64,000 nt of DNA from Candidatus Dojkabacteria bacterium (GCA_030834985.1 JAUQWV010000003.1:656-64655), one strand, 5' to 3'. Counted from the stretch's first letter, positions 6,401-20,046 are shown. The notes: generated from the letters alone by a model not told the origin. Numbers and translations: made by a program.

Positions 6401-6590
6401 CTGGTAGGTTAAATGAAAATGGAGTACTTTCATCTTGAAAAGATAAGCTTCCCACCGCAGTAAGAGCGTTGTCAGCCTTTACAGGATTGCATACTGATGC
6501 AATAAAAGGGATAGACACTATAATCAGGAAAATATGAAAAACTCCAAGACCTACAATTAGAAGTCTTTTGTTATTATTTTTCATAGACAA
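441..6590 (-). CDS. Giant secreted surface protein (2049 aa). It has PPC-like and Ig-like domains, thrombospondin type-3-like Ca-binding repeats (DxDxDGLxDxEE), and a C-terminal module of TM helices alternating with CarboxypepD_reg-like domains.
   Basis: Long ORF with an N-terminal signal anchor, DSDKDGLTDKEE/DSDNDGLLDGEEV repeats, and a hydrophobic C-terminal region of TM, beta-sandwich, 2TM, beta-sandwich. The 3' end overlaps the transposase ORF. Confidence 0.8.
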   Translation of the reverse strand: MSMKNNNKRLLIVGLGVFHIFLIIVSIPFIASVCNPVKADNALTAVGSLSFQDESTPFSFNLPANVESVTITMQGEEGTDFDLFDITHSEMSFSYYSEERDTNYEEFTIDYPYEGTWYFDVYYPYGGSDIGGDFSVSVDYISSSYYEDPPNTVLSEVGQFDYDNFKEFSFSTPQNVKNVIVSVLGDSDVELGGLCGKYFCDMTYYPEDGKYMEVNSSMGVMYQDWIFDLYSASGGGYKVLVYYELEEGSSSTDIYTVTDTLDSDFNGHSFYYDGNAKRLIVSLITQDADVNDLMLEAGNWDYMLVASDNNLSTFYKSVVLEDPEEGTYDIQVYTDYYLSDPVDYEIKVFTEDFEEYSEAVSPTVTNGAVGKFDDATEAELAIGVEEDTDVVLLFASYKAYGGAGNRLSSIDTDEEEESFAQLMPYSSRGYPKCFPILENIPEPYSMVTEVWYYSHNLGVERTLELGFNFSGNKSNIRDLTLTAVALSNANQGFRFTDYGCASSGDANTSNFSVDTNAKSKDLVIGAVYTDSNVVLTPTYGEYIQSWNGSGYAFNAAFDYSSTLEWYSNEDVKNYTAVAVAVRADGPALSPNSYTYVPEGGGPSEDIDPPEFEFILAPGTIESNSIEFEGYIIDDVAVDYAEYQINDGDPEMLEIEGDHDYKYFWLYIEELELGSNIVSFTAYDESGKSTTESFTFNYVGYIDDYERPFCNLVSQESVVYSNQVTYSNIECQDDSGIAELQLIVTRDNLYDVLYNDMLPETVAQDGSLGDTHEVITFTIPIDLPDGIIFVRLNPIDIAGNGATYVGSDFFTLEAEDNTPPTLFLEPVRPDPIMDSTPSITGSCADNSLYDTNSVITSLRYSLDGGSWENITPLDGGFGNSVEKYSFDLPEISNGAHTIEVECDDDAGHTSTESDEFNIISPVNVDPELITETEDFEDHTNHVLSESNLIWGNGKLRLRETITTTRTSIDTTNYPTKYVNTAYNMYLIKSDPGNANRIWYSRTGEIVSYNISTDQVTPLNPTSWGLANLGAPIRSIEAVQLNGKTYLWVADGGKIQIYNLTDNTAIQINTGGTGAILPDSQRGRLGAYILINGNLRYLNLNGTLTDTSDDTFTNVTSAPLGSGVELYLDAPRNHLYISRYGFGMDRLNDNNTPLDFSDDVLTQYSNAQFENNGNVFSMLVDPNGYLLVGMAGFNQTGGLYVVLDPHTTPNNASDDTVLKLADSTQIKNLNVYDIVYVEGQNGVGDQLFLGGELGDAYYLNFNDTYTDLLDDTYIRLKITTNNRGVDTNYAYRGSANLIVKDYNTLYVNGDVDGFQKYDLNRGWEDDGQAVVYSTPEDRLFANFFELKEIKRISNIIVAEQIEPSNTIFNKLQDLLFPTVHAQAGSNAVYYSVSVDDGITWHPITLAEILNVNQNDYKVKFKIEMNQVNNSTPVLDSYTLAFGAYQDEEQAKNNYSLSINVLPNEVNPLENFALTIKVVDELGFTNTDYNGTLSISLIDSATSTNRTSWMNINSVNLVNGEATLNNASISNLGSFVITSTYEEETYFSNIISVVESIPDPVPAITFTANRYTINLGESVTLTWNASNLTSLNINRGVGTLNTFSGSTIVAPTTTTVYTIFGNGPYGSLEKSLTIIVNQPTGSSQDNNEESDTEDEDIDSDKDGLTDKEEATLGTDPNDSDSDNDGLLDGEEVKGCLFIKNTTECSDTTFPITDPNNANTDDDGLLDGEEVYGCYFRIGTIVCSTQKFDPTDPTDPNSPSKLPVSEMDDELDELLGTDRDAGNNTLEAQLLNIVNSVTDAISTTAKSGQLPAALVATTTAATVLTAASYPNSVLYAFVWFRKRKKQLSWGLVFDGLTNKPIPFVTVRLLELSGKFVTEEISDLNGKYSIVTTPGEYFVIAKVNGYKEFQLRVKLEGDTFNLEIPMTALDSKENKFYEVKRWFKENLFKINSLIFFIGLIFSIITLVIAPNLVNLVILFIFIIQVVVYYFIRRNKTGSVYDRQSGTKLSGIFVRVFERESGRQLGAAITNANGQYNWQCTISDSCPLYFLKNWG

Positions 6591-6780
6591 AAAAGGAAAG
6601 ATATCTATAAATGCACTATATACTTGAAATTGGAAGATTGCAATGTTTTTATAAAAAATTCTATCCGCTATAACCTAAAACTGGAAATAGTTATAGGATT
6701 TGCAGGCGAAAGTGTTGACCTGGATTTGAACGTGATATATTCTTACTTATAATGGTAATTTAAATTTTTAATCTCTAAGT

Positions 6781-6948
6781 ATGAAGAAAGGTAAAATTAT
6801 CTTCAAAGGTAGCTTCTGGGACTACTTTATTAAGTTTCTCGGTTTATCAGTGTTAACCGTTATTACTTTAGGATTGTTGCTTCCTTACCTTGTCTATTGG
6901 CAGGTTAAATATTTCGTAGATAATCTAGAGCTTGAGATATACGGCTAA
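6781..6948 (+). CDS. 55-aa membrane peptide resembling a single DUF898/YjgN repeat unit
   Basis: Translation is MKKGKIIFKGSFWDYFIKFLGLSVLTVITLGLLLPYLVYWQVKYFVDNLELEIYG. The F-x-GS-x-W-x-YF ... TLG-x-x-x-P-x-x-x-x-W motif is typical of DUF898. It is below the ORF-track length cutoff. Confidence 0.35.
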   Translation: MKKGKIIFKGSFWDYFIKFLGLSVLTVITLGLLLPYLVYWQVKYFVDNLELEIYG

Positions 6949-6991
6949 TTGTATTGTTTTAAAAGAAAGAAATGGTACACTGCCTAAATAA

Positions 6992-7067
6992 TGGGGTAGC
7001 TGGAGGGACTTGAACCCTCGACACCCGCTTCCACAGAGCGGTGCTCTACCACTGAGCTACAGCCACC
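6992..7067 (-). tRNA. tRNA-His (anticodon GTG) with an encoded G-1 and no encoded CCA after discriminator C73
   Basis: Reverse complement folds as a cloverleaf. The acceptor is GTGGCTG/CAGCTAC, the D-arm is GCTCAGTGGTAGAGC, the anticodon loop is CTGTGGA, and the T-loop is GGTTCAAGTCC. Confidence 0.85.
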
Positions 7068-7106
7068 ATACATGACGCGACTATTATACCATCTGAATAA
7101 TGTTTA

Positions 7107-7916
7107 CTAAAGCCTGCAGGAGTTAAAATCGCCAGTAGTATAACCTTTATTAAATGACTCTACTCTTTGAGCTGATGAACCGTGAGTCCAAGTTTCAGGA
7201 TTAATCTGACCTTCTACTTTTTGCTGTATTCTATCGTCGCCGACTGCTGAGGCGGCGTCTATGGCTTCTTGAATTTCGTTGGGCTCTAAGATATTTAAAT
7301 CACTGATATAGTTGCCCCAAAGGCCTGCATAGCAGTCGGCTTGAAGCTCTATTTTGATTGAATCTTCATTTGTTTGCCTGCCCTCTAGATCTCCTAGTAT
7401 ATTTTGAATATGATGCCCTACTTCGTGAGAAATAACATAGGCTTGAGCTACATCTTCATTTGAACCGCCTAAATAGGTTTTTAATTCATCAAAGAAGGTC
7501 TCGTCTAAATAAATAGTCCGATCAAAAGGACAATAGTGAGGGCCAACATCTGATGTTGCTATCCCGCAACCGGATTGTGTAGCATTCCTAAAAAGTACTA
7601 GCTTAGGAGTGGTGTATGCTCTATTCTGCTGCTGAAAGATCTGATTCCACATATCGTTGTTAGAACCTAAAACTGTAGAAGCAAATCTTTCGTAGCTATC
7701 CTCTCCTTCAAATTCTTGAGTATTTTGTTGTGTAAGACCCTGATCTTCGACTATAGAAAATATATTATTCGCTACATCACCTAAATCTCCACCTGCTAAA
7801 AGAGTTATCCCAGCTATTAACGCTATACCTACAACTCCTATGCCACCGGCAACTGTAGACATTCCTCGTCTATCTTCAACGTCACCTCTACTGCCAATTC
7901 TTTCCCAAACAGCCAT
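7107..7916 (-). CDS. Putative neutral zinc metallopeptidase (YpfJ family), membrane-anchored
   Basis: HEVGHH zinc-binding motif, conserved GCGxATSxxGPxYCPxDxxIYLD block, N-terminal TM segment. Confidence 0.75.
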   Translation of the reverse strand: MAVWERIGSRGDVEDRRGMSTVAGGIGVVGIALIAGITLLAGGDLGDVANNIFSIVEDQGLTQQNTQEFEGEDSYERFASTVLGSNNDMWNQIFQQQNRAYTTPKLVLFRNATQSGCGIATSDVGPHYCPFDRTIYLDETFFDELKTYLGGSNEDVAQAYVISHEVGHHIQNILGDLEGRQTNEDSIKIELQADCYAGLWGNYISDLNILEPNEIQEAIDAASAVGDDRIQQKVEGQINPETWTHGSSAQRVESFNKGYTTGDFNSCRL

Positions 7917-7974
7917 ATAAAATTAATAATATTTGTATTGTAAAGTTTAATGTATACAGTGAGAGATAGTAAAG

Positions 7975-8001
7975 GGTCGCCCCGACTTGTTAAGTCGGGG
8001 C
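7975..8001 (-). terminator. GC-rich hairpin (ccccgactt gtt aagtcgggg) downstream of the 261-aa gene
   Basis: Perfect 9-10 bp inverted repeat immediately 3' of the stop on the minus strand. Confidence 0.45.
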
Positions 8002-8775
8002 TCCAACTGGAGATTGCGGGCGCAAAAGTACAATGTACCGCGCCCATATATACCAACTATCACGAGTATCCGGTGTATAAGGGCCCCACCCGCAGAATGC
8101 CATGATGACATACTGATCGGGAGAATCCATAGCATCCTGCCACACTTCGGCGTTTTCAAGGTCAAAAGCTTGCGCCAGACCTAGAATGTTCCGTGTGTTT
8201 GTTGAGTAAGCAGGAACGCCACTTGGATCGATGTAAGCGATCGCTGCTACATCGAACCGTAAGTCTACTGCCGGATTGCTCTGGCTGCCTTCTTCGCGGA
8301 TTCGCATGGTGTGATTCTGGCTTACGAACTCTGCAGTATTCTCGCGAATCCGCTCGTAGTTCGCGTCCAATTCCTCATTGGACATTGCTCTTTCCGGCCA
8401 AAGACCGGATTCAAATTCATGACGGAACTCCTCCCCTTCGAGAGGTGCACCACCGAATATACCAGAGTGTACAATCAAAAATGGGTTGCCCCAATCTTCT
8501 ATTGTCACAACTCCGGTATGCTGTCCTGGTTGAAAACGCCGATCACGAATATCCTCTAAGCTTACCTCACCCCCGTATATTACAGGAGTGAAGGTATGCC
8601 CCCAAAGCCGCGCACCGCTTGCGTTGTACACGCTGAATGTGATCGGCATTTCCCACCCATAACCCAGATCATTTTTTTGTTCTGGATCAGGAGTGGCTTC
8701 AGGCTCTTGAGCGCTAACCGTTAAGCTAGCAAGGGTTAAGAGGATTACAAACAGCAGAACTGCTATCGCTTTCAT
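7990..8775 (-). CDS. Secreted hypothetical protein (261 aa) in GC-elevated island 1
   Basis: Signal peptide MKAIAVLLFVILLTLASLTVSAQE. RBS-like gaaagg lies upstream. Composition is distinct from flanking genes. Confidence 0.7.
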   Translation of the reverse strand: MKAIAVLLFVILLTLASLTVSAQEPEATPDPEQKNDLGYGWEMPITFSVYNASGARLWGHTFTPVIYGGEVSLEDIRDRRFQPGQHTGVVTIEDWGNPFLIVHSGIFGGAPLEGEEFRHEFESGLWPERAMSNEELDANYERIRENTAEFVSQNHTMRIREEGSQSNPAVDLRFDVAAIAYIDPSGVPAYSTNTRNILGLAQAFDLENAEVWQDAMDSPDQYVIMAFCGWGPYTPDTRDSWYIWARYIVLLRPQSPVGAPT

Positions 8776-8805
8776 TTCAAACCTTTCGGTCTAGTCCAGA
8801 AATAC

Positions 8806-8832
8806 TTCGCCCCCCAGTTACGGGGGGCGAGT
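8806..8832 (-). terminator. GC hairpin (cgcccccc agttac ggggggcg) downstream of the 685-aa gene
   Basis: 8-bp G/C stem about 20 nt after the stop of the upstream minus-strand gene. Confidence 0.45.
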
Positions 8833-8850
8833 TAACTGGACGATTATAGG

Positions 8851-10908
8851 TTAGGCTGTCTTGACAGCGCGGCGGCGGGTTATTGCAACTGCGCCTACGA
8901 TGAGCGCACCACCGACGATCACTATACCGGACGGGAAACTGCTAGCTTCACCCGGACGCTCAGGCGAACCCGACTCCGGTGCCGGTTGAGGCGTTGGCGC
9001 GGGATCATCTGCGCGAACCGAGCAAACGCCGGGCTGGACATAGTCTAGCACCACAAATACTGCGCCATTGCCTCCTACCACACGGAATGGACCGTAGTAA
9101 TAGTCGGCATTGGCATTCTTGTGAATGCTAACTTCCCAGCCGCTGGTTTTCTGCTCCTGCTGGGGAACCCAGGCGTCCCACTCGCCCCATTCCTGTCCAT
9201 CCCAGCGCTGTACATACAGTGGCTCGGGTAGCGGATTGGGGAGGTACGCCAAGCATACAAACTGCGGACCGGGTAGCGGAGGCGGAGGTGGCGGTAACGT
9301 CACCGTAGCCGTGGGGACCGGATCGGTGGGGGTCGACGTTGGCTCAAACGGCTCACAGCTAGCGCTCGCCGTCCATGTAAAGTCGGGCGACAAACCGGGT
9401 GCCGTTACGGTCACTCCCTGACCGTTCGGAACAGCTCCCAAATCCATCGTATCTGTTGCTCCGGCCGCGACATTCCGCGTCGCGTTCACGAAGCCCGTTA
9501 CGGTAAACGTTACCGGCTGGTTAGAACCGGTATTATCGAACGTCAGTACTGCGGGAACAGCGCTTTCGCTTCCGTTCCAAACGCACTCGCCGACACTCAC
9601 ACTGACTGCTGGACCGAAAACATCCGGCGGGCAATTTGCTGCCGCCGTCCACGTAAAGTCAGGCGACAAACCGGTTGCTGTTACAGTTACGCTTTGACCG
9701 TTCGGGACTAGCCCTAGGTCAAGCGAATCCGTTACACCGGCTGCGACATTCCGTGTCGCATTTACGAAGCCCGTTACGGTGAATGTCACCGGTTGGTTCG
9801 ATGCCGTGTTGTTGAATATGAGTAGGGCTGGCGATTTGCTTTCGCCTGCGTCGTACACACACTCGCCGACGTTCACACTCACTTGCGGAGCGTAAACGTC
9901 GGGAACACAGCTAGCGCTTGCCGTCCACGTAAAATCGGGCGATAAGCCCGGTGCTGTTACAGTCACGCTTGCACCATTTGGGACTAGCCCCAGGTCCAGT
10001 GTGTCTGTTGCTCCGGCCGCGACATTCCGCGTCGCGTTGGCGTAGCCTGATACTGTGAACGTCACTGGTTGGTTCGACGCGGTGTTGTCGAATGTGAGCA
10101 CGGCTGGCACTTTACTTGCGCCAGCATCGTACATACACTCTCCCACGTTTACACTCACTTGCGGAGCGTAGACATCCGGGATGCAATTGGTATCGACGGT
10201 GAACGTTACTGGCAAGAGATACCAGTTTTGCTCTGCGCCGAGCTGTAGCTTGTACATGATAGTCACTGATCCCCCGTTATAGTCCTCGGGGAATGTTAGC
10301 GGAACGTTCACCGTGCTGAACACGGGAACGTTGACGATACTGTAAATCGGTCCGAATGGCTGCCCAGCGTATGGTCCCTGCGAAATCGTGCCAGGGAACG
10401 ATGGATGGCTTTCGTACGTCGGGGCTTGATCTCCCACCCGGTAGTCCCACGCGAATGCAAAGCGCGTGGAGTTGTTGAAGGTGAGTGTGGCGCCGCCACA
10501 CGTTGCCGTGTGAGACATGGTGGGCGGTGTACTCGGGAATGCGGTGTAGCTTCCGTTGCTGTCGCAGTCGGCGGAGGCGTCAAGCCTCCATGTGAACGCA
10601 CCAGTTGGCGGCACAGTAACATTTCCTACCGTTACCCAATCGGTGCCGGCCGGCAGTTGAGGGACGGGAAACGTCCCCTGACTGACGTTGTTTATGTACA
10701 CGACCACGTTTTGCGCGGCTTCGGTTGCGCCACTCAGATTGCGATAGCGCACCAAACCCTGTTGTGTAACTTCACCGTAGTAGCCGTTCGTGGCATTACA
10801 GTACCACGCTTGGACCGCTCCTTGCGGCGCGGCGAAGAAAGCCAACGCACCGATGAAGAGCGCTAGCCCCAACAAAGACCGCAGTAAGTAACTTAACCGC
10901 TGTTTCAT
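8851..10908 (-). CDS. Surface-anchored protein (about 685 aa) with three tandem ~92-aa Ig-like repeats, a Pro-rich stalk and a C-terminal TM anchor. It lies in the high-GC island.
   Basis: The start is set at ATG 10908 (MKQRLSYLLRSLLGLALF signal peptide), which is preceded by the strong SD GGAGGG. The ORF-track start at 11004 looks like a spurious extension. Three near-identical CxPDVYAPQVSVNVGEC...DFTWTASAS units. C-terminus is GIVIVGGALIVGAVAITRRRAVKTA. Confidence 0.75.
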   Translation of the reverse strand: MKQRLSYLLRSLLGLALFIGALAFFAAPQGAVQAWYCNATNGYYGEVTQQGLVRYRNLSGATEAAQNVVVYINNVSQGTFPVPQLPAGTDWVTVGNVTVPPTGAFTWRLDASADCDSNGSYTAFPSTPPTMSHTATCGGATLTFNNSTRFAFAWDYRVGDQAPTYESHPSFPGTISQGPYAGQPFGPIYSIVNVPVFSTVNVPLTFPEDYNGGSVTIMYKLQLGAEQNWYLLPVTFTVDTNCIPDVYAPQVSVNVGECMYDAGASKVPAVLTFDNTASNQPVTFTVSGYANATRNVAAGATDTLDLGLVPNGASVTVTAPGLSPDFTWTASASCVPDVYAPQVSVNVGECVYDAGESKSPALLIFNNTASNQPVTFTVTGFVNATRNVAAGVTDSLDLGLVPNGQSVTVTATGLSPDFTWTAAANCPPDVFGPAVSVSVGECVWNGSESAVPAVLTFDNTGSNQPVTFTVTGFVNATRNVAAGATDTMDLGAVPNGQGVTVTAPGLSPDFTWTASASCEPFEPTSTPTDPVPTATVTLPPPPPPLPGPQFVCLAYLPNPLPEPLYVQRWDGQEWGEWDAWVPQQEQKTSGWEVSIHKNANADYYYGPFRVVGGNGAVFVVLDYVQPGVCSVRADDPAPTPQPAPESGSPERPGEASSFPSGIVIVGGALIVGAVAITRRRAVKTA
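9358..10185. repeat. Three tandem ~276-bp coding repeats (about 80-90% identity) inside the 685-aa gene
   Basis: Repeated DNA blocks, e.g. ccgtccacgtaaa(g/a)tc(g/a)ggcga(c/t)aa(a/g)cc(g/c)ggt. The protein repeats are at aa 274-549 of the ORF-track numbering. Confidence 0.7.
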
Positions 10909-11171
10909 TGTGATCCCTCCTAGGATCGAGAACCGAAAGTGGGTACGATGGTGGCAGCAGTTGAACTGCTTCGACCGCACTGGGAACCTAATCGATAGAT
11001 TCACAAAACGGTCGAAGCAGCAGCTTAACCTAAATTATTAATTAATCTCCAGTTGTTAAAGAACTTTTGCAGGGCTTTAAGCCACTGCTCATTTTCTAAA
11101 ACTCAATAGAGATAAAGATATCATCTAAATGGTTTTATACCGGAATTATAGCAAAATATATTACAAATATA

Positions 11172-11186
11172 TAGCCTTTGAGGCTA
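11172..11186 (-). terminator. Weak hairpin (tagcct ttg aggcta) plus a T-rich tract on the minus strand, downstream of the 419-aa gene
   Basis: 6-bp stem followed on the minus strand by tatatatttgtaa. Confidence 0.3.
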
Positions 11187-11219
11187 AAAATTGTCTATAG
11201 CGAGGGATGCCAGTTATAG

Positions 11220-12479
11220 CTATTTTGGCATAGCTGTCTGGCTAGTATTTGAGGCAGAGGCAGGCGGCAAAACCTGTTTTTCCATAGCAGTAGGCGCAGA
11301 CGCATCTTTTGCCGCCTGCTTTTGTTTACCACTTCTTGCTCTGGTACGTTTGATTAGACGGTAAATACCGAATATTACTAATTGAAGAAGTAATAAAAGC
11401 GCTAAAGCAATCAGTGCCGATTTTAGGTCAAAACCTGTAGTAGTAGTTTCCTCTTCATCACTTACTTCTACAAAATCATTTGGAGAAATGTCCAAAGTAG
11501 CAGACTGTTTATTGCCTGCTTTATCAAACGCATCTACTACAATTCTACCCGTTGTCTTAGATATACGCATTCCGCTAGCGGCTTTTTCTACTACCTTACC
11601 ATCGATAGTAACTATATATTTATCAACCCCAGAGATTCTATCAAAAGATGAGTAATATACTTGGAGCTCAGTATCACTACTATTTAAAGTTGCAATACCA
11701 AATGGATCTGGAGGTGTTGTATCTACCCTTACTGTAAAATGAGATATAGGTCCCCATCCCACATTATTTCTCGCTTTAATATGAAAATAATAGACCCCAT
11801 CTTTTAAATTAGGAAAAGAAGCAGATGTACCTTCACCTTTTGATTCATCACCAGGATCAGTTTCTGGTGTCTGATCAAATGCATAGCTAAAATCTGTTAC
11901 TCCATTTTGTCTATTCCATGAAAATTGCCCTTCAGCTTTTGAATACCACACGCTTTGATCCGGATGAGATGCAGAAGTGATTGAAACAGCTTCAGGTGCT
12001 GGATCTGGCGGCGGCGGCGGATTAATAGCATTAAATACAACTGTATTGCCGCCGCCATTCACTGGTGTCCCAGATCCGTCGGCTAAAGCAATAGTACCAG
12101 ATGAATTTATACTAGCTTGTGATTCGTGATTTGGTAATGCGAATGAAACTGATAATACATCTCTTCCACCAGAAGCGCTACCACCTAACAAAGCCCCACT
12201 AAAACTTATTGTATTACCAGATACTGAAGGTCCTGCGACACCTGTCCACCCTCCTACAACAGAAGCTCCTAAATACGTTAGGTTATTGAAAGTTACATTA
12301 ACAGTTACCGCGTTATATGTATCGCCAGAATTAGCACTTACAACAACATTTACAGTTTGGCCGATATAGAAAGTTCCACCTCCTGTGGTCCAGAAATTTA
12401 CATCTGCAGCCTTAACAGGAACTGCCGGAACAACAGGAAATACTAAAAGCGCAACTAAAAGTAATAAGAATTTTTTCAT
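11220..12479 (-). CDS. Surface protein (419 aa): signal peptide, N-terminal cohesin-like beta-sandwich, Pro-rich linker, FN3-like domain, and a C-terminal TM anchor with a long basic tail
   Basis: The GQTVNVVVSANSGDTYNAVTVNVTFNNLTYLGASV pattern resembles the cohesin strand-1 to strand-3 region. NPPPPPDPAPE linker. The C-terminus is LIALALLLLLQLVIFGIY followed by RLIKRTRAR. Confidence 0.7.
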   Translation of the reverse strand: MKKFLLLLVALLVFPVVPAVPVKAADVNFWTTGGGTFYIGQTVNVVVSANSGDTYNAVTVNVTFNNLTYLGASVVGGWTGVAGPSVSGNTISFSGALLGGSASGGRDVLSVSFALPNHESQASINSSGTIALADGSGTPVNGGGNTVVFNAINPPPPPDPAPEAVSITSASHPDQSVWYSKAEGQFSWNRQNGVTDFSYAFDQTPETDPGDESKGEGTSASFPNLKDGVYYFHIKARNNVGWGPISHFTVRVDTTPPDPFGIATLNSSDTELQVYYSSFDRISGVDKYIVTIDGKVVEKAASGMRISKTTGRIVVDAFDKAGNKQSATLDISPNDFVEVSDEEETTTTGFDLKSALIALALLLLLQLVIFGIYRLIKRTRARSGKQKQAAKDASAPTAMEKQVLPPASASNTSQTAMPK

Positions 12480-12518
12480 ACTATAAAATAATAACTGCTT
12501 ATTTAATAAATTTCTACC

Positions 12519-14888
12519 TTAAAAATTCTGCATCCAATTTATGGCCAGAATACTTAAGTCAGAAATATTTGTTATACCATCATTGTTAGCATCTGCTGTA
12601 TTGTTTGATTGATTCCAGTAAGTTGCTAGTATACTTAAATCAGATAAATTTACGGCACTATCTAAATTGAAGTCCCCTTTAGTTTTTAAAAAATATTGCT
12701 GAGCATTTATTTGAAATGTTGTTGTAACTTCACGATAATTTCCTACATTATCAAATGCTCTAACTGTTGCAGAGTGAGTTCCGTCTCCTAAAGCAGAAGT
12801 TGTGTATGGGGAAGTAACAGTACTAAAACTTCCTCCATTAATAGAGATTTGGTAGTGCGACATGCCAGATAACGAATCAGTTGTAGAAAAGCTCAATATG
12901 GCAGTCGCACTCAAACTTGTTTTCCCGATTGTAAAATTATTTGGAATAATTTTATCGATTCTTAAATTTCTATTAGATGATAATGTAGTGTTGCCTGCTA
13001 CATCTGTTGCCCTAACTCTCCATTGTTTATTGCCGCTTGGTATTGCCGATGGTGCAGTATGCGAAATTGCTGACAGGTCAGAATATGTTTCAACAGAATC
13101 TATAAGGATATCGTATGTTACTGGACCATTTGCATCAGTAGATGCCTGCCAAGTAAACTCCGGTAAATCATTATTAGTCCAATCAGTTGTCGGACCTGTT
13201 AAATTAAATACCGATGGAGGTGTATTATCTATAATTAATTCTAGAGTATCAGGATCAGATCGGTTTCCATTAAAGTCTTCTGCAATAAGATTAGCCATAT
13301 ATGTTCCATCAGGTTGATCGATATCTAAATCTATTAATGTTGTATTTGATTTATTGCCACGTCCGGTATACATATACGTTGTAGCATCGGGTCCAACTAT
13401 TGAGAAACTAATATAATATGCGTACAAATTTGTAGAGTTAACTGAGCCATTAAGCGCAATATTTCCTTTAAATAAATTGCTTGGAGGTTCTGTAAATGTT
13501 GCGGTTGGAGTTGCGCTGCCTAGTGCTGGGTCAGATAAAGATAGCGCGTTCAGCGCATTAAGTCTGCCAAATCCATACAAGGTGTCGTAACCAGCCGTAC
13601 CTTTATCTTCTGCAGTTGAAAGCAGCGCTTTTCGGATCTCATAATAACCCCAAGGGGTTATATCTTCTGAATGAAGGCTGTACAAAAGCGCTGCTACACC
13701 CGATACATGGGGCGCGGCCATTGATGTACCGCTAAAGCAGCCATATTTTACCGCGCCCACACATCCACTAGTAGGATTCTGCTTTGTCGTTAAAACTCCT
13801 TGTCCTGGAGCAATAATATCAGTTGCTAATCCAAAATTAGAAAATCCGCTACTAAAAACATCATTGTGATTAGCAGCATTTACAGTAATTACATTCTGTA
13901 AACCTGCAGGAGAATAAAATGATGAATCAGTGCTATCGTTACCAGAAGATGCCACCACTGTAATATCATTTTCTACTGCATAGTTAACTGCATCCTGCGT
14001 AACTTGCGAAAAGCCAGGTCCTCCAAGGCTTAAATTGATAATATTTGCACCGTTATCAACTGCGTATTCAATAGCTTCTGCCACAATCGGATCTGCAGTA
14101 CTATTTACTGCTCCAAAAACTTTTAAAACCATTATCTTGCATCCCCAGCAGACACTTGCAATGCCAGTTACATTGTTTGAATTGGCTGCAGCAATTCCTG
14201 CTGTGTAAGTTCCATGGCTTAATTGTTCTTGAATATTTGTAAAGTCGCTAGGATTACAGCCTGGCAGTGGTGTAGGTACACAGAGCGATTTTGCATAAAA
14301 GTTAAAACCGTTAATATCATCTATGTAGCCGTTGTTATCATCATCTACACCGGTTGCTCCATTCGCTTCAATAGTATTTATCCATAATTTATTAGTAAAT
14401 TCCGGATGAGTTAAATCTATCCCTGAATCTACAATTGCAATAATTGTATTTGTTGAACCTGTTTCGATTTCCCAACCTGAAAGGCCACCTGGCGGGTCAG
14501 TAACAGGATTTAGCCCTATTTTTCTTAAACTCCACTGATCGTACTGACCCGCCAAAAAAGTTCCTTGCGAAGCATAGTACTGGTCATCTGGATTAAGCAT
14601 TAATGAATATTCAACAATTGGAGTAACTGTTTCTACCAAAGGATTATTTATTATATTTGTATATTCATTTTTATCTGTAACATTTACTTTACTCCATTTA
14701 CTAAGTTCCTTTGATTTTGACCGACTATTAAAGCCATACTTTCCTGTATTTTTGTACTTAATAAGAAACTCACCTGATTTATACTCATTTGATTCAGCTG
14801 AAATTTGAAAGTTAGCCGCAAAAGAAGATACTAAAAAAACAAGCAGTAAAACTAAAAACGTAGTAGTAGATTTACGTAAATACATCAC
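12519..14888 (-). CDS. Subtilisin-like serine protease (peptidase S8) with FN3/Ig-like domains and a C-terminal type-I dockerin
   Basis: Catalytic triad motifs are AIVDSGID (Asp), HGTYTAG (His) and GTSMAAPHVSG (Ser). Two Ca-binding dockerin segments are present: DFNLDSAVNLSDLSILA and DANNDGITNISDLSILA. Confidence 0.85.
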   Translation of the reverse strand: MMYLRKSTTTFLVLLLVFLVSSFAANFQISAESNEYKSGEFLIKYKNTGKYGFNSRSKSKELSKWSKVNVTDKNEYTNIINNPLVETVTPIVEYSLMLNPDDQYYASQGTFLAGQYDQWSLRKIGLNPVTDPPGGLSGWEIETGSTNTIIAIVDSGIDLTHPEFTNKLWINTIEANGATGVDDDNNGYIDDINGFNFYAKSLCVPTPLPGCNPSDFTNIQEQLSHGTYTAGIAAANSNNVTGIASVCWGCKIMVLKVFGAVNSTADPIVAEAIEYAVDNGANIINLSLGGPGFSQVTQDAVNYAVENDITVVASSGNDSTDSSFYSPAGLQNVITVNAANHNDVFSSGFSNFGLATDIIAPGQGVLTTKQNPTSGCVGAVKYGCFSGTSMAAPHVSGVAALLYSLHSEDITPWGYYEIRKALLSTAEDKGTAGYDTLYGFGRLNALNALSLSDPALGSATPTATFTEPPSNLFKGNIALNGSVNSTNLYAYYISFSIVGPDATTYMYTGRGNKSNTTLIDLDIDQPDGTYMANLIAEDFNGNRSDPDTLELIIDNTPPSVFNLTGPTTDWTNNDLPEFTWQASTDANGPVTYDILIDSVETYSDLSAISHTAPSAIPSGNKQWRVRATDVAGNTTLSSNRNLRIDKIIPNNFTIGKTSLSATAILSFSTTDSLSGMSHYQISINGGSFSTVTSPYTTSALGDGTHSATVRAFDNVGNYREVTTTFQINAQQYFLKTKGDFNLDSAVNLSDLSILATYWNQSNNTADANNDGITNISDLSILAINWMQNF

Positions 14889-18779: not shown

Positions 18780-18851
18780 ACGACAAACGTTAATAATTAC
18801 TATCTTTTAGTATACACATTATTAAATTTGGAGGCTAGAAAAATCAAGAAG

Positions 18852-18924
18852 TATGCCCGGCACGATTCGAACGTGCGACCTACTGCTTAGAAGGCAGTTG
18901 CTCTATCCACTGAGCTACGGGCAC
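18852..18924 (-). tRNA. tRNA-Arg (anticodon TCT), no encoded CCA
   Basis: Reverse complement is GTGCCCGTAGCTCAGTGGATAGAGCAACTGCCTTCTAAGCAGTAGGTCGCACGTTCGAATCGTGCCGGGCATA. The anticodon loop is CTTCTAA and the T-loop is GTTCGAATC. Confidence 0.85.
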
Positions 18925-18965
18925 ATATATAGTGTAATTTTAACACTTTGCTTGAATTTTTAAAC

Positions 18966-19037
18966 TGAGCTGACCGAGACTCGAACTCGGAACCAACTGC
19001 TTAAGAGGCAGCTGCTCTACCATTGAGCTATCAGCCC
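18966..19037 (-). tRNA. tRNA-Lys (anticodon CTT), no encoded CCA
   Basis: Reverse complement is GGGCTGATAGCTCAATGGTAGAGCAGCTGCCTCTTAAGCAGTTGGTTCCGAGTTCGAGTCTCGGTCAGCTCA. The anticodon loop is CTCTTAA. Confidence 0.85.
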
Positions 19038-19125: not shown

Positions 19126-19411
19126 GAAAAGAAATATTTGAGCGTTTGCCAAAACTACTTCTTTCGCCTGCGCGCTTTACGTCGCTCCTCCTTTTTGAAA
19201 GCACGAATCCGCGCACGCTTTTCAATTTGGCTCGGGCTCTTCATGACGCAACTCCTTTACTAGTATACGGTACCTTGATTGTACTATCTGTAAAAAGTTA
19301 TGTAAATATTAGTCAACTTAAATTGGAAAAATTTTCGAAGAAAACGATTACAGAGAAAGATACTCCGGCGAAACACCTTACCCTGCAATCGCCCTATTGG
19401 GGACGGAGACG

Positions 19412-20005
19412 CTAGTCTTGCTCGTCCTCGTCATCACTGTCGCGGCCGAAGTTTTCGCTGGCGCTAAAGCGATGAATGATGCTTCTCAGCACCAAAGTCA
19501 GCACTACAGCTGCAAGTCCATAACCGGCAACTGACCGCGCTTCTACTGCCAGCATATCCAACGTTTCAGCGGGCACTCCCGTGCCCCAGTGAATCGCGAT
19601 ACGCTCTGCAATGAAGCCCAGCGACGAGAACGCTTTTCCAGCAAAGAAAAGGGTACCTGCGAACGCGGCATCTCCCACGAATTCGGCGTATTTCCCGTGG
19701 CCGGGGACTGTGTCCAATGGCAAGGCTATAAGATAGCCCACCACGAACACAACGTAGTGGATATTTGCCACTACCTCCCAGACAATCGGTGTGATTACAA
19801 CGCCGGTAGGCAGATTCATGCCCAGGCGCGCGAAAAGGAATCCTCGAAAGAGGCTCGCAACCGCAGTTACCACAACGAGGACTACGAAGAGCCCCCAGAT
19901 AACGCGCTGATTTTCTAATACGCCTTTCAGGGATACTGATGGCAGACTGGGCGCAGAAACGCTCGGCAATGAAAACGGAAAACGCTTACCAGCTGTGTCA
20001 GACAT
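19412..20005 (-). CDS. Polytopic membrane protein (197 aa) with an acidic C-terminal tail, encoded in GC-elevated island 2
   Basis: Several hydrophobic helices. The tail is RDSDDEDEQD. Codon usage is rich in GCG/CCG/GGC, unlike neighbouring genes. Confidence 0.65.
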   Translation of the reverse strand: MSDTAGKRFPFSLPSVSAPSLPSVSLKGVLENQRVIWGLFVVLVVVTAVASLFRGFLFARLGMNLPTGVVITPIVWEVVANIHYVVFVVGYLIALPLDTVPGHGKYAEFVGDAAFAGTLFFAGKAFSSLGFIAERIAIHWGTGVPAETLDMLAVEARSVAGYGLAAVVLTLVLRSIIHRFSASENFGRDSDDEDEQD

Positions 20006-20046
20006 TGACTGTCTCCTTTGAACTATTTGCCCATTCGATATACGAT

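Follow-up and report, generated by a model that had tools for sequence, protein, structure and literature searches.

A fixed two-gene high-GC island with a mosaic gene for a predicted surface protein in a Candidatus Dojkabacteria species complex

Genomic islands and transferred genes in Patescibacteria (CPR bacteria) have been described as atypical blocks of a few kb. Most of their genes are hypothetical, and the donor is often unrecoverable (PMC12455944; PMC10031880). The locus described here lies in a 64,000-nt stretch of DNA (the window) and resembles these islands in being a short atypical block in a streamlined CPR genome (PMC12455944; PMC10031880). It differs from them in that it has no mobility genes, is found in every sampled strain rather than being variably present, and is situated in the core chromosome; its main gene, geneA, has deep recombining alleles. 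Like a classical tRNA-linked genomic island, it is atypical in composition and codon usage. However, a native gene separates it from the tRNA, and tRNA-derived repeats, mobility genes and variable presence are all lacking.

The O-antigen and capsule loci of enterobacteria provide a further comparison. These loci occupy a fixed position, have atypical composition, carry alleles which are far older than the flanking genome, and recombine via conserved flanks. By analogy, the geneA locus may be likened to them in its fixed position, atypical GC and deep recombining alleles. O-antigen and capsule loci are, however, multi-gene polysaccharide pathways, usually with a GC content below that of the genome; here there is a single protein gene, of higher GC, in an episymbiont-type bacterium.

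Composition and edges of the island

The host, an ultra-small CPR bacterium with an AT-rich chromosome, is labelled Candidatus Dojkabacteria. Its EF-Tu, SecY and DnaG have exact counterparts among NCBI 'Candidatus Dojkabacteria' proteins. The original prediction, which was made from the sequence alone, was correct in calling a CPR genome; its Saccharibacteria-like host-epibiont setting is not supported, the genome belonging to Dojkabacteria and not Saccharibacteria. The genes for SecY, EF-Tu, EF-G and DnaG are all inside the window, and the island is part of the core chromosome, close to the cluster of SecY and ribosomal-protein genes.

Cusum segmentation places the island at 7974-10988 (3015 bp), with a GC content of 0.556 versus 0.352 for the rest of the window. 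This corresponds to z = 9.4 against 220 equal-sized windows (mean 0.352, sd 0.022, maximum 0.431). In 200-nt windows, GC rises from 0.30-0.44 outside to 0.49-0.64 within approximately 7990-11000; in 1-kb windows it is 0.52-0.58 in the island and 0.28-0.49 in the remainder of the 64 kb. The tetranucleotide correlation between the island and the rest of the window is -0.44 (other 3-kb windows, 0.94±0.03) and, after GC normalisation, 0.06 (other 3-kb windows, 0.77±0.08). GC3 is 0.61 in geneA (z 9.5) and 0.46 in geneB (z 5.9); the 46 other genes have 0.216±0.041, with a maximum of 0.32. GC1 and GC2 are also elevated in the island genes, and GC is high in non-coding DNA (0.52 in the leader, 0.51 in the geneA-geneB spacer). 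Synonymous sites and non-coding DNA of the island both have a foreign composition.

Both edges are in intergenic DNA. The right edge comes directly after geneB ends (stop codon at 7990), and the left one falls within the 311-nt spacer between a 419-aa gene (stop at 11220) and the geneA ATG (10908). Both flanking genes are on the minus strand and have host composition. On the right is a YpfJ-type Zn-metallopeptidase (7107-7916; Pfam PF04228 at 5e-77, NCBIfam NF050010; GC3 0.29), whose relatives are all in Patescibacteria-type genomes. On the left is a 419-aa membrane-anchored surface protein, p419 (11220-12479; GC3 0.22). The island contains two ORFs only, both on the minus strand; neither matched a Pfam, NCBIfam or PHROG family. 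No integrase, recombinase or other mobility gene is present in it, and a repeat search found no flanking direct repeats. The abrupt GC switch, the intergenic junctions, the two co-oriented genes and the GGAGGG site had all been anticipated, and the sliding-window GC and tetranucleotide checks which had been proposed both return the island as an outlier.

We consider that the island is best explained, with a probability of about 0.7, as a two-gene foreign cassette which became fixed between native genes and whose geneA encodes a mosaic surface protein, with repeated import of GC-rich DNA. The source of the cassette would be a bacterium, or a mobile element of one, with a GC content of roughly 55-60%. 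The cassette would have been placed between two native core-chromosome genes of the AT-rich species complex and then inherited vertically. Some observations are at odds with this reading. A single old, passively ameliorating insertion predicts an excess of GC-to-AT changes, and there is none among the substitutions between strains in the island. Furthermore, GC3 is unequal between geneA and geneB.

The non-coding elements are on the minus strand unless stated otherwise. The spacer upstream of geneA is AT-rich and host-like (11026-11219; GC 0.30); it probably holds the geneA promoter, so that geneA would be transcribed from host-like AT-rich DNA. It also contains a hairpin following the 419-aa gene (11186-11172). 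The 166-nt leader (11060-10895) includes a long hairpin with 25-nt arms and a 5-nt loop (10966-11020), exactly at the left GC edge; the RNA fold is -57 kcal/mol (z -5.0). A Shine-Dalgarno sequence, GGAGGG, is found at 10915-10920, 6 nt upstream of the geneA ATG. Two GC-rich terminators had been predicted. Both hairpins exist. The one between geneA and geneB (8807-8830) has 10 pairs, 8/10 of them G-C, and a fold z of -5.1; it passes the terminator scan and is 98.7-100% conserved in sister strains, with a modest U-tract. The other, at the right GC edge (7979-8001; fold z -3.5), overlaps the stop codon of geneB; it has a weak U-tract and was not called by the scan.

A perfect 12-nt inverted repeat brackets the island. 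Its right arm, CAACTGGAGATT, is at 8004-8015 on the plus strand, and its left arm is at 11044-11055 on the minus strand. There are just two copies in 64 kb and none in shuffled sequences, and the repeat is conserved in all sister loci. The island could on this basis be what remains of a phage moron or other small, non-autonomous mobile element which ended at these arms, and one distant homologue lies on a 65%-GC contig resembling a phage replication module. We regard such an origin as unlikely. One arm is inside the geneB coding sequence, there is no transposase or integrase, and no target-site duplication was seen. A chance 12-mer match is expected about 0.6 times in a 4.4-kb region; only the position is unusual (roughly 1e-3, an estimate). 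Phage, plasmid and IMG/VR collections gave no island match, nor was there any match to PHROG.

Continuity across strains and the tRNA-His gene

The island is at the identical place in more than 20 assemblies obtained independently from this species complex, with flanks 92-100% identical. Three of them (L001, L085 and L096) span both junctions, and L001 is 99.9% identical to the window over 7770-13381. The right junction is shared by L003 and L086-L093 and the left junction by L094-L100; the junction between the island and the 419-aa gene is identical in L001, L085 and L094-L100. Contigs carrying exact copies of geneB reach 226 kb in length, and one of 234 kb has a close variant.

An assembly chimera, in which a high-GC fragment of another organism was joined into a low-GC contig, is effectively refuted; the original prediction had called it less likely. 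One copy of the region (L001) is filed in a MAG named 'Anaerolineae bacterium', and many short-read contigs end within geneA, as a chimera might lead one to expect. However, the L001 contig itself has both low-GC flanks, L085 and L096 cross both junctions independently, and the same junctions recur at 92-100% identity in more than 20 runs from different samples. The contig ends in geneA coincide with its 276-nt repeats, and the flanks co-diverge with the island. The locus also illustrates how contigs of this kind come to be mis-binned into other MAGs, where they can mimic transfer in MAG-to-MAG BLAST screens.

The island is inherited vertically. The Zn-peptidase flank and the island diverge in parallel among strains (94.7-97.5% identity for the flank, 93.3-96.6% for geneB). 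The presence of the island in every sampled strain, together with this co-divergence, indicates that it is not recent. Sister genomes without the insert had been suggested as a comparison, but none was found among the sister-strain contigs reaching either junction; the insertion event itself is for this reason not observed, and this too counts against a foreign cassette. More distant genomes (Zn-peptidase ≤61% identical) have no synteny here and are outside the presence/absence comparison.

The tRNA-His(gtg) gene (6992-7066, minus strand) is one gene away from the island, as noted originally, with the Zn-peptidase between them. It is a real hot spot in this species, but it acts past the tRNA 3' end, on the far side of the Zn-peptidase: sister-strain synteny breaks exactly at the tRNA 3' end, on the side facing away from the island. 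The only recombinases belong to a separate element, located past tRNA-His in strains L090-L093. With up to 3 mismatches allowed, the tRNA-His 3' end does not recur in the window. Integration of the island at the tRNA, as first suggested, is not supported, given the side of the synteny break, the lack of a repeated tRNA fragment and the lack of an integrase.

Encoded proteins, their relatives and the donor

GeneA (8851-10908; this and all geneA features are on the minus strand) encodes a 685-aa protein which, from the ORF and an AF2 model, is predicted to be exported, anchored at its C-terminus and multi-domain. It comprises a signal peptide, two N-terminal β domains (D1 and D2), three Ig-like repeats of 92 aa each, and a C-terminal domain followed by a membrane anchor. 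For both island proteins the signal peptides were assigned by visual inspection together with predicted helices at the N-terminus, in agreement with the two exported proteins first proposed. That of geneA (10807-10908; aa 1-34, MKQRLSYLLRSLLGLALFIGALAFFAAPQGAVQA) has a predicted helix at 2-25. D1 (10534-10806) covers aa 35-125 approximately, with HMMER matches to query residues of about 10-140. Its AF2 confidence is low because the alignment had no D1 matches. D1 relatives are 35-48% identical, and one is on a 0.94-Mb contig. Most are proteins with CPR-type C-terminal tails and low GARP (Gly+Ala+Arg+Pro content, a proxy for genomic GC). They look like CPR proteins, so that geneA could in part have a patescibacterial origin, which also tells against the foreign-cassette reading.

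D2 (10174-10533; aa 126-245 approximately) is modelled as a β-sandwich bounded by Cys137 and Cys242, with a pLDDT of about 90. The three tandem 276-nt repeats (9354-10188) encode 92 aa each, with 75-83% mutual amino acid identity; each is an Ig-like β-sandwich with two Cys. The C-terminal β domain (9013-9267; aa 548-632; pLDDT 70-88) has Pro-rich linkers on both sides and is also found in the proteins P0057, P0217, P0135 and P0176. The predicted membrane anchor (8854-8928; …SSFPSGIVIVGGALIVGAVAITRRRAVKTA) has a predicted helix at 668-684, followed by the basic tail RRRAVKTA. The AF2 model is all-β apart from a terminal helix; D2, the C-terminal domain and the repeats have pLDDT values of 85-95. 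Foldseek with this model returned only Ig/FN3/macroglobulin-type domain arrays and adhesin repeats; matches include FN3 arrays, macroglobulin domains, large-adhesion-protein repeats (6xi3) and WxLIP. On the model, geneA is an array of independently folded β-sandwich domains. The product would be Sec-exported and would form a C-terminally membrane-anchored stalk; it is most likely a surface adhesin or recognition protein.

The closest protein type is the sortase-anchored LPXTG adhesin with Ig-like repeats found in monoderm bacteria. The predicted geneA protein is similar in its signal peptide, tandem β-sandwiches and Pro-rich stalk. It also ends in a hydrophobic segment and a basic tail, and its D2 is homologous (36-44% identity). 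D2 is common to actinobacterial LPXTG proteins such as Spinactinospora WP_179641213.1, to Patescibacteria sortase substrates such as HEX9817619.1, which adjoins a sortase gene, and to P0057 and P0217. A comparison with the tails of homologues shows that the geneA anchor resembles a sorting signal without the LPXTG motif. A regular-expression scan found many LPXTG/LAxTG motifs among the homologues and none in geneA, which has only …SSFPSG… (tail …GEASSFPSGIVIVGGALIVGAVAITRRRAVKTA). No sortase gene is next to geneA at the locus, and geneB has no sortase similarity (Pfam Sortase at E = 10; BLASTP against the L104 sortase).

GeneB (7990-8775, minus strand) encodes a 261-aa orphan protein which is predicted to be secreted and is found only in this lineage. 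It had no match in Pfam, NCBIfam, PHROG, PADLOC or PDB, and its AF2 model is poor. No homologue outside the lineage was found in the collections searched, an absence which weighs against the foreign-cassette reading. The combination of D1, D2, three repeats and the C-terminal domain in geneA is likewise found in this lineage only.

The closest outside relatives of geneA, P0057 and P0217, are metagenomic secreted proteins of about 250 aa, consisting of D2 (56-61% identity) and the C-terminal domain (about 38-50%). Neither contains D1, the three repeats or the anchor, nor is a geneB-like gene present downstream. The P0057 gene is on a 0.53-GC contig with a GC-rich convergent neighbour, and its GC3 of 0.60 matches that of geneA. 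No high-identity donor sequence was found in any collection searched, a further point against a foreign cassette. More distant D2 relatives are in 0.65-0.68-GC contexts and in Spinactinospora. Distant D2 matches are divided between actinobacterial-type and CPR-type proteins, and D1 matches look CPR-type.

The original prediction favoured transfer from a high-GC actinobacterial host to its epibiont. A recent event of this kind, with integration at the tRNA-His hot spot, is very improbable. It is consistent with D2/repeat-domain relatives in Spinactinospora and Cellulosimicrobium (WP_069385349.1), with the relative on the 65%-GC phage-like contig, and with the hot-spot status of tRNA-His. However, in addition to the position of that hot spot and the occurrence of the island in all strains, the GC3 of geneA is far below the 0.76-0.86 found in high-GC homologue contexts (n=2), and the closest homologue is P0057. 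Actinobacterial D2 domains are also no closer than patescibacterial ones; both are 36-44% identical. Under the preferred reading of a foreign cassette, the donor could itself be a GC-richer patescibacterium. The interpretation given in the original prediction is, as a whole, partly supported.

Divergence among geneA alleles

GeneA is a hypervariable recombination mosaic with deep alleles, a new finding which the original prediction had missed. Between the window strain (W) and L096, the flanks are 98-100% identical, and the leader and signal peptide are 100% identical, but the region 10800-10180 is only 59-74% identical. The dS is 0.07-0.09 in the flanks and is saturated at geneA codons 51-250, with a dN/dS of about 0.15. 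Over this segment W and L002 are 98.7% identical, with flanks that are more diverged in L002. In strain L002/L086 the divergent segment is the repeat block; L085 has a single repeat copy. Domain-sized segments would be exchanged between strains by homologous recombination, with alternatives old enough for synonymous sites to have become saturated.

At four-fold sites, 62 of 85 differ between W and L096. The GC4 values are 0.68 and 0.64, and G<->C changes make up 34% of the differences. A simple Markov model, with a substitution spectrum taken from all codon positions of the flanks, gives a GC4 of ≤0.48 and approximately 10% G<->C at that divergence, even when starting from a GC4 of 1. The alleles are saturated yet all GC-rich, and the host substitution pattern cannot produce this; it implies either repeated import or a local force which maintains GC. 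Since all geneA alleles are GC-rich, they most likely diverged outside this AT-rich genome, and GC-rich DNA has probably entered the locus on more than one occasion. In other respects this would be ordinary gene transfer, but the geneA variants seem to have diverged in GC-rich genomes.

A local force is central to the alternative that both genes are old native patescibacterial genes, with GC held high by GC-biased gene conversion at a hot spot of recombination or by selection on mRNA or protein. We think this a poor prospect, although recombination at the locus is heavy, the island substitution pattern is near equilibrium at high GC, and D1 and D2 are present in other Patescibacteria. The jump in GC3, from 0.22 to 0.61, is very large, has sharp limits and takes in the non-coding leader and spacer, and the oligonucleotide signature shifts beyond base composition. 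The patescibacterial D2 homologue examined has a GC content normal for its own genome, and the nearest relative of geneA is in GC-rich DNA. The neighbouring variable surface genes, encoding p419 and an S8 protease, retain host GC3.

Composition, genomic setting and continuity of the island

Measured in 200-nt windows, GC content rises from 0.30-0.44 to 0.49-0.64 across positions ~7990 to 11000, then drops again. Cusum segmentation places the island edges at 7974 and 10988, giving a length of 3015 bp; both edges are intergenic. The three kilobases of the island have GC contents of 0.52, 0.58 and 0.56, and the rest of the 64 kb does not exceed 0.49 in 1-kb windows. Island GC is 0.556 compared with 0.352 elsewhere in the window (z = 9.4, 220 equal-sized windows). 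The tetranucleotide correlation with the rest of the window is -0.44 raw and 0.06 after normalisation for base composition; for other 3-kb windows the values are 0.94 and 0.77, respectively. The original prediction had described an abrupt GC block with intergenic edges and had called for a sliding-window GC and tetranucleotide check. The GC profiles, segmentation and z score bear out the block, and its composition is atypical by both measures.

Two minus-strand genes fill the block: geneA (10908..8851; 685 aa, ATG preceded by GGAGGG) and geneB (8775..7990; 261 aa). GC at third codon positions (GC3) is 0.61 in geneA and 0.46 in geneB, compared with 0.216±0.041 (maximum 0.32) in the 46 other genes of the window. 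The anomaly sits at synonymous sites; amino-acid composition alone is therefore not the explanation. Non-coding island DNA is also GC-rich (leader, 0.52; geneA-geneB spacer, 0.51), and the spacer upstream of geneA (11026-11219), which probably bears the promoter, has a GC content of 0.30. The foreign origin originally proposed for the island is supported. The island belongs to a known class, the horizontally acquired islands of CPR genomes (PMC12455944, PMC10031880). Since horizontal transfer into CPR is already documented, the island by itself is unsurprising.

The window contains SecY, EF-Tu, EF-G, DnaG and a ribosomal-protein cluster, which identifies it as core chromosome. EF-Tu, SecY and DnaG are identical to NCBI proteins from one 'Candidatus Dojkabacteria bacterium' MAG, an EF-G fragment of which shares a 90% cluster with the EF-G of the window; the same MAG also supplies close variants of geneB and of the YpfJ-type Zn-metallopeptidase (7107..7916) beside the island. 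As predicted, tRNA-His(gtg) (6992..7066) lies one gene away from the island. Large surface-protein genes surround the island; they encode a 2049-aa protein, a 419-aa protein (11220..12479), an S8 protease with dockerin and an NHL-repeat protein. Among GTDB species representatives, Zn-peptidase relatives are found only in Patescibacteria-type genomes (≤61% identity), and none of these genomes shares synteny of the neighbouring surface genes.

The same region was retrieved from many independent assemblies by exact-sequence look-ups and BLAST. L001, an NCBI contig in an 'Anaerolineae' MAG, is 99.9% identical over window positions 7770-13381 and spans both junctions. Both are also spanned in the Logan assemblies L085 and L096; the overall identity of the L096 strain is 92.7%. 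The junction comprising the 3' end of geneA, geneB, the Zn-peptidase and tRNA-His is present in L003 and L086-L093, and that comprising the NHL protein, S8 protease, 419-aa gene and 5' end of geneA is present in L094-L100. An exact copy of geneB is found on a 226 kb contig and a close variant on a 234 kb contig. Short-read contigs frequently end within geneA, at its 3 × 276-nt tandem repeat. With both junctions crossed in L001, L085 and L096, an assembly artefact is rejected, and the original judgement that the island is not chimeric holds.

Proteins identical to those of the window are also filed under 'Anaerolineae bacterium', 'Candidatus Brocadiaceae bacterium' and 'Patescibacteria group bacterium' MAGs; records with such labels are CAJPFV010000716.1 (L001), CAG0940304.1, CAG0943242.1 and CAG1021222.1. 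These labels reflect mis-binning. The 'Anaerolineae' label was considered as a hint to the donor and dropped, as the contig has Dojkabacteria flanks. It should be noted that GC islands of this kind cause mis-binning and can yield false 'HGT events' in MAG-versus-MAG screens; mis-binned Dojkabacteria proteins could pass for inter-phylum gene transfer. To judge from the MAG names, the sample was probably an anammox-type reactor community.

Predicted surface and secreted proteins of the island

Surface proteins are likely determinants of host recognition and attachment in ultra-small episymbiotic bacteria. GeneA encodes an N-terminal signal peptide, domain D1 (aa ~35-125), domain D2 (aa ~126-245, with Cys137 and Cys242 at its borders), three 92-aa repeats (aa 245-520; 75-83% mutual identity, two Cys apiece), a C-terminal domain (aa 548-632) with a Pro-rich stretch on either side, and a hydrophobic helix followed by an RRR tail. 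This C-terminal end looks like a sortase sorting signal, except that LPXTG is absent. The AlphaFold2 model, built from a 41-sequence alignment, is all-β. In it, D2, the C-terminal domain and the repeats reach pLDDT values of 85-95; D1 is modelled poorly because its relatives are missing from the alignment. Foldseek searches of the PDB with this model find nothing more specific than arrays of Ig, FN3 or macroglobulin-type β-sandwiches; large adhesion protein repeats and Enterococcus WxLIP are among the matches. From this domain array and these matches, geneA is read as a putative membrane-anchored, stalk-like adhesin or recognition protein. It has no match in Pfam, NCBIfam, PHROGs or PADLOC, and PDB sequence searches were empty. 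The architecture has not been described previously.

The geneA of L085 (1875-3380, corresponding to window 9354-10188; P0003, 501 aa) has one 92-aa repeat instead of three. The repeat number may really differ in this strain, or the 276-nt repeats may have collapsed in short-read assembly.

The product of geneB is a secreted orphan, found solely in this lineage. It has no family in Pfam, NCBIfam, PHROGs or PADLOC and no PDB relative, and a scan of IMG/VR gave no match. A divergent sortase was considered: the protein has the order His…Cys…Arg, and its gene follows that of an anchored substrate, like the sortase gene at locus L104. However, there is no sortase similarity, the AlphaFold2 model is too poor (pLDDT 45), and the fold search with it is meaningless. 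The candidate was dropped for want of sequence support.

The 5' leader of geneA contains a hairpin with 25-nt arms (10966-11020), precisely at the left GC boundary. The 166-nt leader with this hairpin has a folding energy of -57 kcal/mol (z -5), and its sequence is identical in all strains. An Rfam scan over 6500-12000 matched tRNA-His alone and left the leader hairpin unmatched. A terminator-like hairpin lies between geneA and geneB. Both of the GC-rich hairpins originally claimed (8807-8830 and 7979-8001) are present. A perfect 12-nt inverted repeat, CAACTGGAGATT, brackets the island at 8004-8015 and 11044-11055. It occurs only twice in the 64 kb and is kept in every strain and all sister loci. 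It may bear on how the island entered, as a remnant of terminal repeats, or it may have arisen by chance.

Mosaic alleles and the retention of high GC

Synonymous divergence (dS) between strains is 0.07-0.09 in the flanks, 0.28 in geneB and 0.58 in geneA overall. Between the window strain and L096 the flanks are 98-100% identical, whereas window 10800-10180 (D1-D2) is 59-74% identical; its breakpoints are sharp and lie immediately downstream of the signal peptide and where the repeats begin. In the same segment the proteins are 81% identical and dN/dS is ~0.15, which indicates old alleles under purifying selection and not fast evolution. The apparent pS of 0.85-0.96 was considered as deliberate recoding; this was dropped, as direct inspection shows ordinary saturation, with a different codon at 103 of the 166 conserved residues. 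Between the window strain and L002/L086 the D1-D2 segment is 98.7% identical although the flanks are more diverged, and it is the repeat block which is saturated. Different segments are saturated in different strain pairs; geneA is therefore a mosaic, with domain-sized segments moving between strains. A tblastn search with geneA found no silent paralogous cassettes within the 64-kb window. GeneA is compositionally foreign, present in every sampled strain of the species complex, and exchanging very old, domain-sized alleles, which is the signature expected for diversifying selection at a cell-cell interface.

All geneA alleles have a GC3 of 0.57-0.65. Of the 85 4-fold sites in codons 45-250, 62 differ, so that these sites are fully saturated; GC at these sites (GC4) is 0.68 and 0.64 in the two alleles, and G<->C changes make up 34% of the differences. 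A four-state Markov model was parameterised with the substitution spectrum of the flanks, for which the equilibrium GC is 0.33. At that divergence, and even from an ancestor with GC4 = 1, it gives a GC4 of ≤0.48 and ~10% G<->C; the test uses few sites and a simple model, and the donor pool is unsampled. The observed values lie beyond the model, so the divergence would not have accrued under the substitution regime of this genome. Saturated synonymous sites with GC kept, in a genome which erodes GC, make a concrete, testable case that alleles were imported repeatedly out of a GC-rich gene pool.

Alternatively, it is possible that a local force keeps geneA alleles GC-rich. Within the island, substitutions seen as singletons among strains are not skewed from GC to AT, and the apparent equilibrium GC is 0.41-0.59 compared with 0.32-0.36 in the flanks. 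This pattern fits either local GC maintenance or separate import, and recombination confounds the test; a polarised amelioration test was dropped for the same reason, as the recombination involves old alleles. Divergence of the alleles in GC-rich genomes, followed by separate imports, is favoured over local maintenance.

A broader reading, to which we give a chance of roughly one in five, is that the locus is a standing entry point at which surface-protein alleles are repeatedly imported from a GC-rich partner organism. Domain-sized geneA alleles would come repeatedly from this partner, perhaps the physical host of the presumed epibiont or phages of that host. They would enter by homologous recombination, with the C-terminal parts of geneA and the conserved stretch of leader and signal peptide as points of entry, and would next spread among Dojkabacteria strains. 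If so, geneA would be a host-derived, host-matching recognition or adhesion module, and the GC-rich alleles would record ongoing host-to-epibiont gene flow and not one ancient transfer.

Relatives, donor and route of entry

A HMMER search of 1.84 billion representative proteins gave 185 geneA matches. One is full-length (P0002, encoded on L002) and comes from the same species complex; the remainder are single-domain. L002, an island-only contig with 86% identity, was dropped as a donor, as it is identical throughout their overlap to strain L086, which carries the Dojkabacteria flank. D2 is present in actinobacterial LPXTG proteins, such as an Excalibur-domain protein of Spinactinospora, and in a Patescibacteria protein whose gene precedes a sortase gene. 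Its relatives in the two groups are equally close (36-44% identity), and neither group is clearly favoured in a neighbour-joining tree. D1 relatives mostly have low GARP (Gly+Ala+Arg+Pro, a proxy for genomic GC) and CPR-style tails; one sits on a 0.94-Mb contig. The nearest outside family comprises P0057 and P0217, secreted proteins of ~250 aa which consist of D2 and the C-terminal domain and are 56-61% identical to geneA in D2. P0057 is the member for which DNA is available (L102): its gene has a GC3 of 0.60, as geneA does, and its convergent neighbour is GC-rich.

The original prediction raised transfer from a high-GC actinobacterial host as a possibility; this is not supported. Neither the D2 identities nor the GC3 of the P0057 gene single out Actinobacteria. 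The evidence favours a donor of moderately high GC (~55-60%). A GC-richer patescibacterium is possible; the commonest reported transfers are those within Patescibacteria (PMC12455944). No relative was confirmed in two metagenome-contig scans, one with geneA alone and one with an alignment that includes P0057, and none was found in IMG/VR scans with the P0057+geneA alignment and with P0004 (a distant LPFTG-anchored D2 relative), or by tblastn of geneA against phage and plasmid collections. The donor, if found, could reveal the partner organism.

P0004 is carried by L084, a 31 kb contig of GC 0.65 from Logan SRR21722025. Small co-directional ORFs surround its gene, together with genes for DnaB, primase, PolA, RecA and N6/N4 methyltransferases. 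The set resembles the replication module of a phage or plasmid, which suggests that surface proteins of this family can travel on mobile elements.

There is no integrase, transposase or flanking direct repeat in or around the island, and the 3' end of tRNA-His is not repeated elsewhere in the window. Sister strains are homologous up to exactly this 3' end (window 6988-6991). On its far side, the window carries a 55-aa ORF and the 2049-aa surface-protein gene, and the genes of L086/L087 are unrelated. In L090-L093 this place is taken by an integrative element that encodes a serine recombinase, a tyrosine integrase, an HTH_17 protein and an MmeI-type restriction-modification enzyme. The tRNA-His gene is a true hot spot in sister strains, as was suspected. 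Integration of the island there is not borne out: the variable side of the hot spot points away from the island, the native Zn-peptidase separates the two, and neither an integrase nor a tRNA repeat is present.

A second high-GC stretch (19330-20010; GC ~0.55, GC3 0.58, z 8.7) lies ~300 bp from tRNA-Lys(ctt) and tRNA-Arg(tct) (18851-19037). It contains a minus-strand ORF (20005..19412) for a 197-aa multi-pass membrane protein with no match in Pfam, NCBIfam, PHROG or PADLOC, and has no sequence similarity to the main island. In L031, a Doudnabacteria MAG contig (JBKJSV010000029.1, 4600-6100), GC switches from ~0.38 to 0.64 about 400 bp past the Zn-peptidase gene, and a single short low-GC ORF lies in the interval. 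From the switch to its end the contig is GC-rich and contains an ORF of coiled-coil-like composition; either L031 has a similar island or the contig is chimeric.
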